From the IMG/VR virus record IMGVR_UViG_2917886563_000005: a stretch of 38,089 bases of DNA, one strand, 5' to 3'. This DNA is from a virus. Its lineage: Duplodnaviria > Heunggongvirae > Uroviricota > Caudoviricetes. Both the position numbers and the translations under genes were made by a program. The notes under the pieces are model-generated. The model searched no databases. It was given only the letters and a program-made list of their open reading frames with translations, and was not told where the DNA came from. Below, in pieces: positions 1 through 38,089 of the stretch. How positions within the stretch are numbered: position 1 is the stretch's first letter; each line of letters starts with the position of its first letter.

Positions 1-477
1 ATGAAACTCATCAGTAATGATCTGCGCGATGGCGATAAGCTGCCGCATCGTCATGTCTTTAACGGCATGGGTTACGATGGCGATAATATTTCGCCGCATC
101 TGGCGTGGGATGATGTTCCTGCGGGAACCAAAAGTTTTGTTGTCACCTGCTATGACCCGGATGCGCCAACCGGCTCCGGCTGGTGGCACTGGGTAGTGGT
201 TAACTTACCCGCTGATACCCGCGTATTGCCGCAGGGGTTTGGCTCTGGTCTGGTAGCAATGCCAGACGGCGTTTTGCAGACGCGTACCGATTTTGGTAGA
301 ACCGGGTACGATGGCGCCGCGCCGCCGAAAGGCGAAACGCATCGCTACATTTTTACCGTTCACGCGCTGGATGTAGAACGTATTGATGTCGATGAAGGTG
401 CCAGCGGCGCGATGGTCGGGTTTAACGTCCATTTCCACTCTCTCGCCAGCGCCTCGATTACTGCGATGTTCAGTTAA
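1..477 (+). CDS. ybhB: Host PEBP-family protein YbhB (158 aa, complete); bio-side flank of the lambda att site
   Basis: Translation recalled as E. coli YbhB (PEBP/UPF0098 family); ORF starts at window position 1 and stops at 475-477. Confidence 0.85.
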   Translation: MKLISNDLRDGDKLPHRHVFNGMGYDGDNISPHLAWDDVPAGTKSFVVTCYDPDAPTGSGWWHWVVVNLPADTRVLPQGFGSGLVAMPDGVLQTRTDFGRTGYDGAAPPKGETHRYIFTVHALDVERIDVDEGASGAMVGFNVHFHSLASASITAMFS

Positions 478-485
478 TCACTCTG

Positions 486-508
486 CCAGATGGCGCAATG
501 CCATCTGG
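486..508 (+). terminator. Perfect 9-bp inverted repeat 9 nt after the ybhB stop; possible host terminator or REP-like hairpin
   Basis: ccagatggc-gcaat-gccatctgg read directly; no strong U-run follows. Confidence 0.3.
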
Positions 509-560
509 TATCACTTAAAGGTATTAAAAACAACTTTTTGTCTTTTTACCTTCCCGTTTC

Positions 561-725
561 GCTCAAGTTAGTATAAAAAAGCTGAACGCGAAACAGTAAA
601 AATCAATAATATCAATGCGTTACAATGCATTTAGTCTAAAAAATAGACTACATGATACTACAAAACACAACATATCCAGTCACTATGAATCAACTACTTA
701 GATAGTATTAGTGACCTGAGACAGA
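561..725 (-). other. attR: lambda-type att core (568..582, reverse orientation) with B' half-site toward ybhB and a lambda-like P arm on the prophage side
   Basis: ttagtataaaaaagc at 568..582 is the reverse complement of the lambda core GCTTTTTTATACTAA; cgctcaag precedes it; 583..725 resembles the lambda attP P arm (e.g. cagtcactatgaatcaactacttagat). Confidence 0.8.
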
Positions 726-1040
726 GCATTAGCGCAAGGTGATTTTTTGTCATCTTGCGCTAATTTTTTGTCACAAAAACATGTCGCACTCCAGAAGAGC
801 ACAAAGCCTTGCAATTCAGTGCAAAGCTTTGTGTGTCTCAGTTTTGTTTCATCAGTCACAGCACGCCATAGAATGCTGACTTGCTTGATGTGTCTGCGGT
901 TCACAATCCTTCAGCAATTTTCACAACTTGCCAGCAAACATCCAATGGCAACGCCTTATCGTCATGTTGCGCATTTACAAAATGCAATATAAATATGTTA
1001 AATTATTATAGAAATCACATAACGTTACGAGGGGTACACT

Positions 1041-2786
1041 GTGGGGATTTTTTTACTAGGCCGCAAGTTCGAAGGATCAAGCTTACTTTTTGATAAGGGA
1101 CGCTTATTTTTACAGAACAGCGTTGATGGAAATGTCTTCCTTGTAGTTGAGAAAGGAGGAAATCGAGCGTTTCTTCATACTGGTGAAAAATTTATAGATT
1201 TTGTTAGAGTTGGGCACTTGTCACATTTGAAATGCTATCTCTCACGTGAGAGCGACAGACTTTTATACTGCGTTTCATCATTAGGTGATGCTATTGAGAA
1301 GACAGTAACAGCAAACAGAACAAAAGCAAGTGGCTGGGAAACATTTGATATGCTTCCTGCAAAAGACTTAAGCGAATCATCCCTTAATCAAATAGAAATG
1401 CTTAAGGAAATATATTTTAAAAATGATGATTTAACATCTGTTTTCAACAGAATTGTTAGATCAGATTTGATTGACAAAGGAAGAACGATTGAAAAGCTAA
1501 TTGAAATAATGAGCGTCGACGATAAGACATATATCTCTTATCATCTATCTAAAAACATCAGTGAATTAGCAACGCTTTCTGATATTTCAGATGATGCGCT
1601 ATTTAAAGCATTTGTTTCAAACCTAACCAACTACAGCAAAAAAATATCTGTTATAGATGAAAAACTTGATTTTTTATCTAAGCTTTCGAACCAAATTATT
1701 TCTAAAAACAGCTGGATTGAACTAATTCATAATTTAAGAAAAATATCTCCACCAAAACATAAATCATGCATTGTTGCAACATGCAAAAATGAAGGTGTTT
1801 ATCTTATTGAGTGGATAGCTTACCATCTAAGCATTGGGTTTGATGCAATATTTATATATTCTAATGGTAATGATGATGGTTCTGACGAACTACTTAATAA
1901 TCTTCATAATGAAGGAATCATATACTACATAAAAAACATTGTTGGAGATGGTGTTAGTGCACAAAACAAGGCTTATGCTCATGCACTAACAATTAACAAG
2001 GAGGTTCTAAATTATGAATGGAGTCTTTTCATTGATATAGATGAATTTTTTGTTTTAAACGAATACATGTTTTCTTCCATCACTGATTATCTAGACTGGC
2101 AAAACAAAAATGAAACTGACGCAATTGCTTTAAACTGGATGTTTAGCAAACCAGTGGAAAATAGCGACTGGATAAACAATCCAATAACTAAAAGATTGCC
2201 ATATATTAATAAAGAAGCAAGCGCTCATATCAAAACATTTTTTAAGCCTCACAAATTCTCAGGCTCAACCCCTCATTTCCCATTGTGCAATAGCAATTAT
2301 AAGTTCGCATATAGAGACTCTTCAGGTAACATTCATGAAAAGTCCATCACAAAAAATGATTTATCATTTTCTAACAAACCACAAAACTCACACGCTTACA
2401 TTATTCATTACTTCAATAGAAGTATAGCTGAGTTTATTTGGAAATACTCTAGAAACAGAGGTAATCACCCAAATACAAAAAGCGGAAATAACTTTACAGA
2501 ACACTTATTTCAGTTCCTTGGCTTCTTCACATCATCATTAGACTCACCACGGTTCGTGGAGAATGAATCAATTGCTAAAATGACTGACATCATTGATTCA
2601 AAAATTAGCGAAATAGTAGCAAGCGAATCAATACAAATTGCGTATGAGAATGTTAAGAACAGGACAAGAGAGCGTTACGAATTAATCGAACCTTTATTTT
2701 GGGAGTATTTAAAGGGAAACATCAACTCAGAAAAACATAAAGACTCAATTTCAGATTTTATATCTAGATTTAAAGAAAAAGCCTAA
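1041..2786 (+). CDS. Cargo gene: 581-aa protein with N-terminal ~240-aa region of unknown function and C-terminal GT-A-fold glycosyltransferase-like domain; candidate lysogenic-conversion glycosyltransferase
   Basis: Motifs CIVATCKNEGVYLIEWIAYHLSIGFDAIFIYSNGNDDGSDELL and DIDEF look like GT2/GT92-type nucleotide-sugar transferases; visibly AT-rich versus flanks; GTG start at 1041 with GAGGGG 6 nt upstream (start uncertain, internal ATGs exist). Confidence 0.65.
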   Translation: MGIFLLGRKFEGSSLLFDKGRLFLQNSVDGNVFLVVEKGGNRAFLHTGEKFIDFVRVGHLSHLKCYLSRESDRLLYCVSSLGDAIEKTVTANRTKASGWETFDMLPAKDLSESSLNQIEMLKEIYFKNDDLTSVFNRIVRSDLIDKGRTIEKLIEIMSVDDKTYISYHLSKNISELATLSDISDDALFKAFVSNLTNYSKKISVIDEKLDFLSKLSNQIISKNSWIELIHNLRKISPPKHKSCIVATCKNEGVYLIEWIAYHLSIGFDAIFIYSNGNDDGSDELLNNLHNEGIIYYIKNIVGDGVSAQNKAYAHALTINKEVLNYEWSLFIDIDEFFVLNEYMFSSITDYLDWQNKNETDAIALNWMFSKPVENSDWINNPITKRLPYINKEASAHIKTFFKPHKFSGSTPHFPLCNSNYKFAYRDSSGNIHEKSITKNDLSFSNKPQNSHAYIIHYFNRSIAEFIWKYSRNRGNHPNTKSGNNFTEHLFQFLGFFTSSLDSPRFVENESIAKMTDIIDSKISEIVASESIQIAYENVKNRTRERYELIEPLFWEYLKGNINSEKHKDSISDFISRFKEKA

Positions 2787-2796
2787 TCAATTTTCT

Positions 2797-2826
2797 GCGG
2801 AGGTAATCCACCTCCGCTATTTTATA
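2797..2826 (+). terminator. Intrinsic terminator after the glycosyltransferase-like gene, between convergent genes
   Basis: gcggaggt-aatcc-acctccgc (8-bp stem) followed by tattttataat. Confidence 0.5.
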
Positions 2827-2851
2827 ATACATTGTGTGATTTACAATATTT

Positions 2852-5116
2852 TCATTTCGATGAGTTAATTGCCTCAATGATACGCTTCAGGATTTCATTA
2901 TTTCTGCGTTGTAATGCAGCCTCAAGGACTAAGGCCTCTTCATAACGGATCCCATAACGTGAGCCTGCCGGAGTGACCAGAATATCTTCATATTCTGGAT
3001 CTGCCTCTTCTTCATACTCTTCTTCGACTTCTTGAAACTCTGTCTCGATGTACTCTTCTTCTACATCTTCAACTACAGGGACGCTCACGAATGGATTTTG
3101 CGCAAATGGTGAACCATCTTCATTAAGAACAGGTATCATTTCCATTTTTGGAGCCTGATACTCTTCATTCACTACTCGTTTAATCCGTGTTCCGTCTTCC
3201 AGTACCTCATCCTTTAATACCTGACGACTCTCAGTAACCATCACTTGTTTGCTTACAATTCGAGTTTTAGTAACCTGCACAGGAACTGTTGTTATGCGAG
3301 TTTTAGTAACCATTACACCTTCGTTTGTCTGAACCTTAGTATATTGATCATCCCACTCGTCAAAGCAAAAGAATCCAAATCGGTGCACATCAAGCCCATG
3401 ACGTTCAAACGCCTCCTTTGCACGTTGAGCTATTACGCCAAAATGCCAACGAGCTCCGTCTTCTCCTTTTTCTTCTGTTCTGTCAAGATACTGAAATTGA
3501 ACGAAGTCAACCTCTGACCATGCGTCAAGTATTGTATCAGTGATTTCAAGAGGTGCAGTTTTAGCTCGCTCATCTGAAGTAACGGTAAAGGCTGTTTGAG
3601 TGAATCCACCAGACCACACACGACCAGCAGTTCCGACCGTGCTATTACTGTTCTGTGAGTATGGTGTAATAGATGAGTCTACTCTTACAACCCCATCCCC
3701 CTTTGGAGATAGCCTCAAATCAATATCTGTATCGCTTCCAGCAACGCCAACAGCAGGAGCATTAGATGCTGTCTGTGAGCGCATGGCTAGATAATTGGCA
3801 GGAACTGTAGGCCCAGACTCTATGGAAAATATAGGTAACCCAGACGATAATCGTGTAAATACTACGCCATTATCACTAAATAACATTCTGGTTGATCTGG
3901 TTGCATCCTCCAAAACAGAGAGTATTTCAGAAGTTTTCTGATTTGAATTGTTGTACCAAGTCATTGAGTGTCTATTACCAAAAGCAATTGCCACACCTTG
4001 ACCTGTTGATTCTCCGTCGGTTCCTTTAAGGCTATTGCTGCCAAATACGATGCCCTTCAGAAAGCGTGCTGTTTTCCCAGCAGTTTTGTCGTTAGCTATT
4101 ATTCCAATTGCTGCCGATGCAGCATTCAACACTTCTCCAGCTTGGGTTAATTCACCACCTGAGCCTAACCATAATGCGTCAGTCTGACCGTTGGGGAACA
4201 TTGAATTAGGATACAGTTCACGCTCATTCCCCCTGTTTGCTATATCAAGTTCAAGACCGTGACTTGCTCCGATTGTTCCTGCATTTCTTACAGTTGAACC
4301 ATAAAGTGCCCATGCGCTAGACCTAACACCTGATGAATCATCGTTGTAAGCCATCCCGGCTACGGCAAGAGCAGCATTACCCGGTTCACCATCTCCAGTA
4401 TGAGCAGATCCAAAAATTCCTATCCCATCTGGTGGGGCAATCCCAACATTTCTACAGTGTCGCTCTAAATAGAAATAAATATTTCCCCCTAGCCCTGCCA
4501 TCCATGGCACTTGCCTTAACCAATACCCACCAATGAATGTAACATCCATTTCCATTTCCCACGATGTAAGTGGGTCTGAAACAATATCCTGACTTAACAA
4601 ATAAGTGCCAGCAGGAATATAAATTTTGCGCCTTGTCGCATTAGCCGCAAGAAACGCTTCAGTAGAATCAACAACCCCTGTTGGGTCAGCACCTCCGGCA
4701 AAACCACTCCAAGTAACAGGCTTTGCTAATCCTCCGACAAATCCAGCTCCACCAGGCCCCTCCAGTTCAGATCGCAGTTGATCGGGGTCATACTTCAGCA
4801 CATTAGGAAAATAGAACTGCTGCGCACCATATGCATCATATACAGCCATAGAATGGCCTTGCACAGTTACGAACTTGGCAATCTGTCCGTTATATACCGG
4901 GTAACCAGCAGCGTTAATGATGATTGGTTGCGAAACAGGAAAGTGAGAGCCGTCTTCGTTCTCCACATAAACCTGAATCTGGTTTTCAGGATTTACCGGG
5001 TCAGTGTCAATTTTACCGATATAAATTTTGCCATTGGCTACGGCTTTAAAAGAACGCGCCATAGTGAAGAGTTGCGAAGGCATACTCACTACAACATTAG
5101 CTGTAATGTCTGTCAT
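2852..5116 (-). CDS. Tailspike: P22 gp9-like N-terminal head-binding domain, different central receptor-binding domain, C-terminal S74-type intramolecular chaperone and Glu-rich tail
   Basis: N-terminus [11 protein letters not shown]...[11 protein letters not shown]...VLKYDPDQ matches recalled P22 gp9 residues 1-~110; C-terminal SDERAK...WHFGVIAQ is characteristic of the autocleaving chaperone domain. Confidence 0.85.
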
Positions 5117-5950: not shown

Positions 5951-6471
5951 ATTACTTTCCGTTTTGTTAGAATCAGAAAGATCTTAATAATAAAAAGTAT
6001 TTTCGTGAAGATATTGTCGATTGAGTTAATAACTCATTTACACCCAACAGTGCCATGATGGCAAAGATAAGGAGAGTTAATCATATGAAAAAATCACTGT
6101 TAATTATCCCGCTTCTGCTGGCAGGGTGTGCAAAGGTTAGCGACTATCAGGCAAGTTGCGAACAACGCTATCCAAAGCTTAGCGATATGGCTAATTGCCT
6201 TGATGCTAGCGTGAAGAACGACTCACGCATGGCATCAGCACCAACACCTAAGTTATATGTCCTTGCTGCGAAGATGCTCGGGCAAGGTGTCGATGATGGC
6301 AAGATAAGTGACGCGCAGGCAAGGCTTGAGCTTCAGAATCTTTATGTTCAATTACAAAGCCAAGAACAAGCCCAACAAATAGCGCAAAGCCAAGCATTCC
6401 AGCAGGCTTTATTGGAGTGCCCCCAAGCCCGTAGACAAATCTGCCCTATAGTTTGAGCATAGGAGGAGTCT

Positions 6472-6756
6472 ATGGGCACACCACGATTTACCCCAGAGTT
6501 TAAGGAGGAAGCTGTCCGTCAGGTTACTGAACGGGGCTATTCCGTTGCCGATGTTTCTGAACGCCTCGGCGTATCGGCTCACAGCCTTTATAAGTGGGTC
6601 CGGTCAGTCAGACCGGATAACAGCGAGCATCAGGCGCAGGATTTACTGGATGCGCGGACGGAGATTCTCAGGCTTAAAGCGCAGCTTAAACGTACTGAGG
6701 AAGAACGGGATATTCTGAAAAAGGCAGCGCGGTACTTTGCAAGGGAGCCCGACTGA
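6472..6756 (+). CDS. IS3-family transposase OrfA (HTH, leucine zipper), 94 aa
   Basis: MGTPRFTPEFKEEAVRQV...LKKAARYFA is typical of IS3-family OrfA; AGGAGG RBS. Confidence 0.85.
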   Translation: MGTPRFTPEFKEEAVRQVTERGYSVADVSERLGVSAHSLYKWVRSVRPDNSEHQAQDLLDARTEILRLKAQLKRTEEERDILKKAARYFAREPD

Positions 6757-7607
6757 AGTACCGCTTCATCAACGATCACCGTGAAATCTGGTCGATCGTA
6801 ACAATGTGTCGGGTTCTGAAGGTCGCCCGTGCGGGATTTTACGTCTGGCTTCATCGCCCTGTTTCTGCCGGAGAAAAGGATAATCAGCGGTTGCTGGAGC
6901 TCATCCGCGATGCTTATGCACTGAGCGGCGGAGTCTACGGTTATCGCAGGGTTCACGGCGATCTTCGTGAAATCGGTGAAGTATGCAGCAGAAACCGTGT
7001 TGCCAGAATCATGAAGCGGAACAGGATACAGGCCGTACATGGCTATAAGGTCCCGCGTGGCGTCAGGGGAAGGCCGTCACTGATAGCTCCTAATCGCGTA
7101 CAGCGGGAATTTACGGTGGTAAAACCCAACCAGGTGTGGGTAACTGATATTACCTACATCCGCACCTGGCAGGGTTGGCTGTATCTGGCGGTGGTTATCG
7201 ATCTTTTTGCCCGTAATGTGGTGGGCTGGTCGATGAAACCAACGCTGTCGCGCGAGCTGGCACTGGATGCGCTGCTGATGGCAGTCTGGCGGCGTAAGCC
7301 TGCAGAAAACGTCATAGTGCACAGCGATCAGGGCAGTCAGTATGGCAGTGATGACTGGCAGCGGTTCTGCAGGGCCAACAATCTGGCGCCGAGCATGAGC
7401 CGTCGTGGCAACTGCTGGGATAATGCGGTGGCAGAATCGTTCTTCAGTTCACTGAAAAAAGAGCGCATCAGAAAGCGGATATATAAAACCCGGGACATGG
7501 CCCGGGCGGATATCTTCGATTACATTGAAGTGTTCTACAACCGGACCCGACGCCACAGTCATCTGGGTGGCGTCAGCCCGGAGGCCTTCGAAAAGGCCTC
7601 ACCGTGA
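6717..7607 (+). CDS. IS3-family transposase OrfB (DDE catalytic domain), made as an OrfAB fusion by -1 frameshift near GAAAAAG (6717..6723); first ATG of the OrfB frame is at 6804
   Basis: OrfB frame is open from the slippery run to 7607; conserved ...ITYIRTWQGWLYLAVVIDLF...HSDQGSQY...DNA... DDE-type motifs; stop lies within the right inverted repeat. Confidence 0.8.
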   Translation, partial: EKGSAVLCKGARLKYRFINDHREIWSIVTMCRVLKVARAGFYVWLHRPVSAGEKDNQRLLELIRDAYALSGGVYGYRRVHGDLREIGEVCSRNRVARIMKRNRIQAVHGYKVPRGVRGRPSLIAPNRVQREFTVVKPNQVWVTDITYIRTWQGWLYLAVVIDLFARNVVGWSMKPTLSRELALDALLMAVWRRKPAENVIVHSDQGSQYGSDDWQRFCRANNLAPSMSRRGNCWDNAVAESFFSSLKKERIRKRIYKTRDMARADIFDYIEVFYNRTRRHSHLGGVSPEAFEKASP

Positions 7608-7894
7608 GGACAGAAACTGTCTACCGGAATGTGGTCACTCCATTATTGAATTATCAGGCTGTAAACACAATGCAAGCGATCGAGCAAAAAGCGAGACAGC
7701 CTGTTATAACTCAACCCTATCCAACACGAGTTGACACTTACACAAACTGCAATTCAGGGTTTGGAAATACAGTCACATGCAACAGTAGCAGTAACATCAG
7801 ATAACAATCAGCAAAGGTATCGCCTATGCAGAGGGATACGATAAACCTCGCGTTCTACATATTTGATTTTTGCACGTTCCTGGTGTTTGAAAAG

Positions 7895-26980: not shown

Positions 26981-27853
26981 TCATGCAGCTTCCCTCCCGA
27001 AGTCGAAATCAAGCTGCCCTCCAAATATTTCGCATGACTCAGAACAAGAGCCGGTATCGAATCTTTTAGCTCGTACCATGTCCTGATACAGGGCTTGATA
27101 ATCATTTTCTGAATACATTTTCGCGATACCGTCCAGCGACATTCTTCCTCGGTACATAATCTCCTTTGGCGTTTCCCGATGTCCGTCACGCACATGCGAT
27201 CCCGTGATGACCTCATTAAAAACACGCTGCAATCCCTCCTCATCTTTGCAGGCAAGTCCGATTTTTTGCGTTGATTTTTTAATGCAGAATATGCAGTTAC
27301 CGAGATGTTCCGGTATTTGCAAATCGAATGGTTGTTGCTTCCACCATGCGAGGATATCTTCCTTCTCAAAGTCTGACAGTTCAGCAAGATATCTGATTCC
27401 AGGCTTTGGCTTTAGCCGCTTCGGTTCATCAGCTCTGATGCCAATCCACGTGGTATAATTCCCTCGCCCGAAATGGTCATCACAGTATTTGGTGAAGGGA
27501 ACGAGTTTTAATCTGTCAGTGCAGAACGCGCCGCCGACGTATGGAGTGCCATATTTCTTTACCATATCGATAAATGGCTTCAGAACAGGCATTTTCGTCT
27601 GAATATCCTTTGGTTCCCATACCGTATAACCATTTGACTGTCCAGGCTCTGGGTTGATATCAACCTGCAATACAGTGAGCGGTATATCCCAGAACTTCAC
27701 AACTTCGCGGATAAACCGATATGTCATCGGGTGTTCACAACCTGTATCCATGAAAACGTAATGCACGTCTTCACCTGCCTGTCGCTTTTGCTCCATTAGC
27801 CAGAGCAAATATGCTGACGTCCTGCCACCGGAGAAACTAACGACATTTATCAT
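26981..27853 (-). CDS. ninC: NinC (PAPS-reductase-like family), 290 aa
   Basis: From [20 protein letters not shown]...; length equals lambda NinC. Confidence 0.8.
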
Positions 27854-37408: not shown

Positions 37409-37753
37409 ATGTCAGATTTGGCTATGAAGATTTTGAAATGGCAATCGACTGGCGATGTCGGCATCAGTAGCGCAACTCTTGCCTCAATCGCATGTGGACT
37501 GAAAAAGAATATCTATGGTCATCACTTCGGCGCTCCACATGACGCAGCCGATTTCCGACGATGCGTTGCACTTGTTGAGCAGATTCCAGAAATCAGAGAT
37601 TCATTCGACAAGGTTGCAAAGCGCGTTCCGGCATTCAAAGGCATCCTCAACGAATGGGATTCCCTCGTTGCTCTGTTGAAGTCTGAAATGAAGATACACG
37701 GAAACAAAGCACCAGAGACTTACAGAAGAATTAGCGAACTACGCAAGGACTAA
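37409..37753 (+). CDS. Hypothetical 114-aa protein upstream of xis
   Basis: ORF in operon orientation; no recognised domain. Confidence 0.45.
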   Translation: MSDLAMKILKWQSTGDVGISSATLASIACGLKKNIYGHHFGAPHDAADFRRCVALVEQIPEIRDSFDKVAKRVPAFKGILNEWDSLVALLKSEMKIHGNKAPETYRRISELRKD

Positions 37754-37820
37754 CCATGGAATCACACAGCCTCAAACCCAATGAGGCCTGTTCATTTCTC
37801 AAGATATCCAGACCTACCAT

Positions 37821-37845
37821 CGCCGCATCAATGCGGTTTTTTTAT
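37821..37845 (+). terminator. Short hairpin plus T7 run upstream of the excisionase gene
   Basis: ccgca-tcaa-tgcgg followed by ttttttt. Confidence 0.45.
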
Positions 37846-37888
37846 TGCCTGATTTGCAGGTTCGATTCCCTATTCGGAGATAGCACTC

Positions 37889-38089
37889 ATGCAACATGAA
37901 CTACAGCCTGATTCACTGGTTGATTTGAAATTCATCATGGCTGATACTGGCTTCGGTAAAACCTTCATCTATGACCGTATTAAGTCCGGCGACCTGCCAA
38001 AAGCCAAAGTTATCCACGGGCGAGCAAGATGGTTATATCGTGACCATTGTGAATTCAAAAATAAGCTCTTAAGCCGCGCCGATGGGTAA
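37889..38089 (+). CDS. xis: Excisionase-like DNA-binding protein (AlpA/Xis-type HTH), 66 aa
   Basis: ...FIYDRIKSGDLPKAKVIHGRARWLYRDH... resembles AlpA-type excisionases; GGAGA RBS; last gene before the expected integrase. Confidence 0.6.
   Translation: MQHELQPDSLVDLKFIMADTGFGKTFIYDRIKSGDLPKAKVIHGRARWLYRDHCEFKNKLLSRADG

Follow-up and report, generated by a model that had tools for sequence, protein, structure and literature searches.

The order and roles of the sites that make up the lambda attachment region have been reviewed (PMC4880445). A second integration module is found in the group that includes KplE1 (CPS-53), HK620, Sf6 and CUS-3, where the integrase IntS is encoded at attL by argW, the excision factor TorI at attR, and the phage attP lies between torI and intS (PMC2951348). 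Mixtures of P22-type and lambda-type genes are classic lambdoid mosaicism (PMC2629481). Judged by its sequence, a P22-like prophage with true lambda Int and Xis at ybhB is already in GenBank (vB_EcoP-720R6, ON470605, Lederbergvirus).

In this study, a stretch of 38,089 nt (hereafter the window) was analysed. It corresponds to PDHX01000014.1:164044-202132 from strain E4736, a member of Escherichia cryptic clade II whose flanking host DNA shows about 90-91% identity with E. coli, and both prophage ends are on this contig. The window contains a genuine lambda-family attR. We consider it likely that it was left by lambdoid integration, and that the window as a whole is a hybrid of the ends of two co-resident P22-like prophages.

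The lambda-family attR beside ybhB

The initial annotation of the window had placed a lambda-type attR with an exact 15-bp lambda core beside ybhB, and our analysis agrees on both points. The core (GCTTTTTTATACTAA) has a single copy in the window (568-582, minus strand), with no mismatches, and it starts 91 bp 3' of the ybhB stop codon. Upstream of ybhB the source contig carries bioA, bioBFCD and uvrB. Positions 528-567 match the B' arm of K-12 attB (CTTGAGCGAAACGGGAAGG...), which is located between ybhC and ybhB. With the B' arm and ybhB on one side of the core and a lambda P arm on the other, the junction is P-O-B', i.e. attR. A chance match to the core was ruled out by the rate in shuffled sequence (mean of 0.12 matches with up to two mismatches allowed) together with the gap-free alignment of the P arm. 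The span originally given to the site, 561-725, covers a real site and ends too early: homology to lambda continues past 725 through the sib/tI hairpin and a second hairpin, to about 835. In lambda, sib/tI is the terminator and retroregulator of int. The HK97 record labels its counterpart sib, and the record of 434 labels it a terminator. The features of this end are as follows:

1..477, plus strand: ybhB (158 aa), host gene on the bio side of lambda attB; an ORF, annotated ybhB in E. coli matches
528..567, minus strand: B' arm, the host part of attB, with the B' core-type Int site beside the core; K-12 sequence CTTGAGCGAAACGGGAAGGTAAAAAGAC...
568..584, minus strand: lambda 15-bp common core (568-582) and C core-type site (CAGCTTT...); 0/17 mismatches to lambda
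610..622, minus strand: H2 IHF site; 3/13 mismatches; the complementary strand TATCAATGCGTTA fits WATCAANNNNTTR
634..648, minus strand: Fis site F; 3/15 mismatches, terminal G and C and the A-tract retained
642..654, minus strand: X2 Xis site, overlapping Fis site F; 2/13 mismatches
655..661, minus strand: X1.5 Xis site; 2/7 mismatches
662..674, minus strand: X1 Xis site; 0/13 mismatches
677..686, minus strand: P2 arm-type Int site; 0/10 mismatches; the 'int 2' footprint of the lambda record J02459
688..700, minus strand: H1 IHF site; 0/13 mismatches; window plus strand AATCAACTACTTA
707..718, minus strand: P1 arm-type Int site; 0/12 mismatches; the 'int 1' footprint of the lambda record J02459
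728..764, plus strand: sib/tI hairpin with T-run; terminator scan, fold z = -6.8 over 720-860

The alignment with lambda attP/attR that had been proposed as a check was run, and all Int, Xis, IHF and Fis sites were located. The lambda site sequences and consensus motifs used for this mapping are those of the lambda literature. From the core to P1 the window aligns with lambda attP without a single gap, the sites follow in the lambda order (P1, H1, P2, X1, X1.5, X2/F, H2, C), and the lambda spacing is kept between all of them. The P arm had been described as diverged yet recognisable, which fits the 26 differences from lambda that we counted over the 151 positions between P1 and the core. The further suggestion that these differences could affect Int, Xis or IHF sites did not hold up, as the differences avoid the sites: within them 9 of 106 positions differ, against 17 of 45 elsewhere (Fisher p = 4e-5). 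The three changes in H2 all fall within the free N4 of the IHF consensus (WATCAANNNNTTR), H1 is identical to that of lambda, and the X1.5, X2 and F variants are also present in HK97 and 434.

Similar P arms were detected in working phages and in many genomes. Across the 151-bp P1-core segment, identity is 82.8% with lambda, 94.0% with HK97, 94.0% with 434 and 88.7% with vB_EcoP-720R6, and all but one of the 26 differences from lambda are also found in HK97, 434 or vB_EcoP-720R6. Among 5,426 complete E. coli genomes, the element at 566-870 is present over 80% or more of its length in about 770, with roughly 90-95% identity. Since the variants are common to other phages and to these genomes, it is lambda, not the window site, that is the outlier, and the differences are ordinary polymorphisms of working attP arms. 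The feature itself is a complete, ordinary lambda-family attR with variants already known in HK97, 434 and many E. coli prophages. The new part is the host lineage, Escherichia cryptic clade II.

Supplied with its cognate proteins and an attL, the site would be expected to act as lambda attR, by analogy with lambda biochemistry. Int would bind C and B' and bridge B' to P2, IHF would bend the P arm at H2, and three Xis (at X1, X1.5 and X2), aided by Fis, would shape the P arm for synapsis with attL.

The far prophage end

The last 10,201 bases of the window are 100% identical to PDHX01000014.1, and the last ORF encodes the excision factor of the argW module:

37889..38089, plus strand: torI, excision factor of the KplE1/HK620/Sf6 (argW) module; 65/66 identical to K-12 TorI

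The protein matches PDB entry 1Z4H (E = 3e-42), and similarity to lambda Xis was undetectable. An argW-type attR core (CTGCAGGGGACACCA) is located downstream of torI, 74-88 bp past the window end (L011:10275). This core equals the 3' end of argW and is identical in ten loci. Past it comes yfdY, 15 bp on, followed by lpxP, alaC and ypdABC. The torI-attR layout of K-12 CPS-53 is as in the window end, and the intact module layout (IntS-attL-argW at one end, TorI-attR at the other) was found in ETEC ATCC 43886.

Several observations concern the host DNA at this end. The 15 bp between the argW-type core and yfdY are counted to the yfdY stop codon (L011:10275-10310). The dsdC-to-ypdI block of about 18 kb, which comes after argW/CPS-53 in K-12, is absent at the core-yfdY junction of E4736, and several different flanks follow the CTGCAGGGGACACCA core in other E. 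coli loci. The exact junction of argW core and yfdY was not found in a scan of species-representative genomes. A tRNA scan placed argW upstream of lpxP in one Citrobacter genome.

No integrase was detected. The source contig was searched with tblastn over 57 kb, made up of the window with 9 kb of upstream and 10 kb of downstream sequence. Lambda Int, IntS and P22 Int had no match there, and neither did a lambda-type Xis gene; the sole match was a 27-aa remnant of P22 Xis at 37756-37836. The window holds no second lambda core that could belong to a matching attL, the far end consisting of argW core and yfdY. At the opposite end IntS and argW are absent, and ybhB and the lambda attR are there instead. 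With a lambda attR at one end and a TorI/argW attR at the other, the assembled prophage of 37.6 kb consists of two right ends from two integration systems and has no integrase. The initial annotation had read the sequence as a P22-like prophage riding on lambda-type integration and had pointed to the other junction and to int beyond the window. On the source contig the matching core and the integrase are both absent and the far end is TorI/argW, so that the reading fails for the sequence as deposited. P22-like morphogenesis combined with lambda-type integration is plausible for the phage that created the site, and such a phage is already known from other records.

Mosaic genome and interchangeable cassettes

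The mixture of P22-type and lambda-type genes described earlier was confirmed for the virion, immC, nin and lysis regions. Pfam and synteny identified the virion genes as P22-type and in P22 order (terminase, portal, scaffold, coat, gp4/10/26, ejection proteins and the tailspike head-binding domain), and their nucleotide identity is 72-79% with P22 itself, rising to about 95% with P22-like phages of E. coli, IME10 among them. The immC and replication genes are P22-type, and the nin, Q, S and R genes match lambda 40567-46235 with 92-97% identity. Three further features were annotated:

1041..2786, plus strand: glycosyltransferase gene, family-2/92, 581 aa, cargo beside the tailspike; Pfam
2852..5116, minus strand: P22-type tailspike; Pfam, P22 head-binding domain and C-terminal Peptidase_S74
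6413..7642, plus strand: IS3-family insertion sequence of 1,230 bp; 4-bp TTAT target duplication, ends TGGAGTG.../...CACTCCA

The 581-aa glycosyltransferase occupies the usual gtrABC or oac place of P22-like phages, and is presumably an O-antigen-modifying cargo gene. Peptidase_S74 is the endosialidase-type intramolecular chaperone domain. The glycosyltransferase-tailspike (GT2-tailspike) module is also present, with 94-97% nucleotide identity, in argW prophages of ETEC O25:NM strains and of a yak isolate; in ETEC ATCC 43886 it comes directly after argW-intS. The linkage of attR, GT2 and tailspike was observed in three assemblies, with 100% identity over the linked segment. Because the tailspike is physically linked to attR, the phage that created the site would most likely have been P22-like, as is vB_EcoP-720R6.

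The IS3-family element (orfA at 6472-6756, orfB to 7607) splits an ORF of the immI region that is intact in vB_EcoP-720R6. One sister assembly contig ends at this element, which makes it probable that the genome holds several copies of it. A misjoin at the IS was considered and ruled out: the TTAT duplication is present, and the flanks rebuild the uninterrupted gene of 720R6.

The limits of homology on either side of the attachment sites define two cassette boundaries:

799..834, plus strand: second conserved hairpin, the tail-side boundary common to lambda-type and IntS-type cassettes; homology limits
37756..37836, plus strand: remnant of the P22 Xis N-terminus, 27 aa, the early-side cassette boundary; tblastn

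On the tail side, homology to argW prophages starts at 794 and homology to lambda ends near 835, so the hairpin at 799-834 is common to both cassette types and lies downstream of int in each. In other ybhB prophages the homology extends to about 863. Phage 434 carries about 110 bp of an intS-type 3' end between tI/sib and the second hairpin (L003, about 2700-2830). This fragment is a trace of an earlier exchange of IntS-type and lambda-type cassettes.

At the early-side boundary, K-12 CPS-53 and vB_EcoP-720R6 also have the 27-aa P22 Xis remnant. Between this remnant and torI there is an argW-like fragment (TTGCAGGTTCGATTCC, within 37756-37870), and K-12 CPS-53 has the same arrangement; in vB_EcoP-720R6 the remnant alone precedes lambda xis. 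Homology between the window and 720R6 extends to about 37841, across a 114-aa gene (37409-37753) and the remnant; then torI follows in the window and lambda xis in 720R6. An identical copy of the 114-aa gene was found, among the matches listed, immediately upstream of at least four cassette types in E. coli, with sbcB-, proA/thrW-, lambda/ybhC- and argW/TorI-site specificity (L112-L121). One of these loci (L115) has a clean xis-int-P'-O-B attL beside ybhC after the gene. The 114-aa gene marks a conserved boundary for cassette exchange. As the boundaries are shared and the cassettes differ, the window carries half of each of two interchangeable cassettes. That both cassette types have the P22-xis remnant and the int-distal hairpin as common boundaries explains the swaps of attachment site among P22-like phages.

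Origin of the join and comparison with known systems

The assembly of E4736 was built from single-end Ion Torrent reads of 35-400 nt, with gaps closed by hand at terminal repeats (PMC6639607). Sister and Logan contigs that are 100% identical to the window end at 4871, 6430, 9894/9903, 11333/11467, 15026, 36158 and 37248. An origin of these breaks in Ion Torrent homopolymer errors was ruled out, as no break is at a homopolymer. The sister assemblies are broken by repeats that exceed the read length, for example over about 2.2 kb across gp16, and the exact gp16 protein is on record solely in the PDHX contig. Taken together, these repeated breaks at ordinary sequence point to another P22-like prophage in the genome, partly identical to this one over stretches too long for single reads to span.

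On the reading that we prefer, a lambdoid phage with a lambda-type cassette (xis-int-attP-sib) would have integrated between ybhC and ybhB of E4736 and created the attR. This attR is now partnerless in the assembled sequence, and the other end would be the right end of an argW-integrated P22-like prophage. In the window, a tail-side end from one prophage would then be joined to an early-side end from a second, partly identical one. The join would have come about by exchange in shared sequence, either in the cell, with an inversion of about 1.7 Mb that is roughly symmetric to the terminus, or during assembly and curation. The hairpin region at 794-863 is one candidate for the crossover, and any shared stretch would serve.

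We give close to an even chance to the second of these routes, in which a normal lambda-integrated prophage at ybhB and a normal one at argW are both present and the contig switches from one to the other in a collapsed repeat. The assembly method (single-end Ion Torrent reads, manual closure) makes such a switch credible, the sister assemblies repeatedly break inside the prophage at ordinary sequence, the record of the exact gp16 protein in the PDHX contig alone is in keeping with it, and normal prophages of both kinds are known elsewhere. However, reference-guided ordering would have favoured an E. coli-like arrangement over a non-syntenic join, the only join that could be checked (that across the IS) is correct, and no lambda int or attL was seen from the E4736 genome. 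If the contig is chimeric, the prophage at ybhB could be a normal lambda-integrated P22-like phage like ON470605; lambda-type integration would then be right for the organism and not for the given sequence. Prophage ends in short-read, manually closed assemblies are, as a warning from this case, unfit for inferring integration systems.

To a real join made in the cell we assign a probability somewhat under one half. Here, oppositely oriented P22-like prophages at lambda attB and argW would have recombined homologously and inverted the segment of about 1.7 Mb that contains the terminus. The K-12 chromosome has ybhB at 807 kb, on the minus strand, and yfdY/lpxP at 2,495 kb, a distance of 1.67 Mb, and in the contig the relative orientation of the two is reversed. 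The midpoint of the two K-12 loci is at about 1.64 Mb, near the terminus (dif is at about 1.59 Mb). Prophages at the lambda site and at the argW site are naturally mutually inverted, and within the prophage the contig is correctly joined across the IS, given the target duplication and the intact empty site in 720R6. The argW neighbourhood of clade II may be unlike that of E. coli, so the geometry of the inversion is argued here from K-12 synteny. A precedent is provided by E. coli O157:H7, in which prophage-bounded inversions of 1.2-1.4 Mb around Ter have been described (PMC8743559). Against a join in the cell, the sole contig that spans both ends comes from single-end reads of at most 400 nt and manual gap closure, and the sister assemblies are broken at repeats longer than the reads. 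The reciprocal hybrid that it implies is not among the observed junctions, and window positions 1-3000 are contiguous in none of the 5,426 complete E. coli genomes.

We hold it possible, with reservation, that the hybrid is real in this sense and is a complete-looking prophage of 37.6 kb that would be permanently grounded: having no integrase and two attR-type ends, it would be locked in. Its reciprocal partner would carry both integrases and two attL-type ends, and the pair could flip between a locked and an excisable state.

It is improbable that attR and sib are a relic of an older, unrelated lambdoid prophage to which P22-like DNA was joined at the hairpin region (794-863) by recombination of the cassette-swap kind, with no second prophage at present. 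The switch of homology from lambda type to argW-prophage type within 794-835 would fit this origin, the intS 3' remnant at the same spot in phage 434 attests to past swaps there, and the element is carried by about 770 of the 5,426 E. coli genomes. But a relic explains neither why the far end abuts yfdY, 1.67 Mb away in K-12, nor the contig breaks, which point to a second P22-like copy. That lambda Int integrated a single intact P22-like prophage whose xis-int-attL follows directly after the window is very improbable despite the complete attR and the existence of such phages, and it is refuted for the deposited contig, where the last gene is torI, not lambda xis, and the 10 kb of 3' flank (argW core, yfdY, lpxP, alaC, ypdABC) are integrase-free.

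We return to the preferred reading, a hybrid of two co-resident prophage ends, for the comparison with described systems. With lambda (J02459, attP core at 27724-27738) the window shares an identical core and C site, the site order and spacing, sib/tI and the host site at ybhC/ybhB. It differs from lambda mostly in the spacers, in its host (Escherichia clade II) and in that the cognate int, xis and attL are absent from the contig. The closest P arms are those of HK97 (AF069529) and 434 (OL657226), which share most of the window's differences from lambda; unlike the window prophage, these two phages are siphoviruses, each of which has an int and a xis of its own beside attP. For the biology of attachment sites the locus is of little importance, as it carries a textbook lambda attR and P22-like phages with lambda Int have already been deposited.

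The latter are represented by vB_EcoP-720R6, which like the window is a P22-like prophage at ybhB with a lambda-type attR. The two share the immI-region gene (uninterrupted in 720R6), gp16, the 114-aa gene and the P22-xis remnant. The far end of 720R6 is unlike that of the window, encoding an Xis 98.6% and an Int 98.9% identical to those of lambda, and its tailspike and cargo also differ from the window's. With the KplE1 (CPS-53)/HK620/Sf6/CUS-3 module the likeness is at the other end: from torI to the attR core the window contig is nearly the same as K-12, the P22-xis remnant upstream included. The intS/attL/argW end of that module is missing from the window, where the lambda attR at ybhB is found instead, and the flank after the core is yfdY in the window contig whereas it is dsdC in K-12 KplE1.

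The prophage-bounded inversions of O157:H7 (PMC8743559) are the closest parallel if the hybrid is real, since there, too, inverted prophages flank the terminus and leave hybrid boundaries. The partners in E4736 would differ in being P22-like prophages at lambda attB and argW in a clade II strain, known from a short-read assembly alone. If true, the structure with two right ends would be a clear case outside O157 of prophage recombination that inverts the terminus region and immobilises a prophage.
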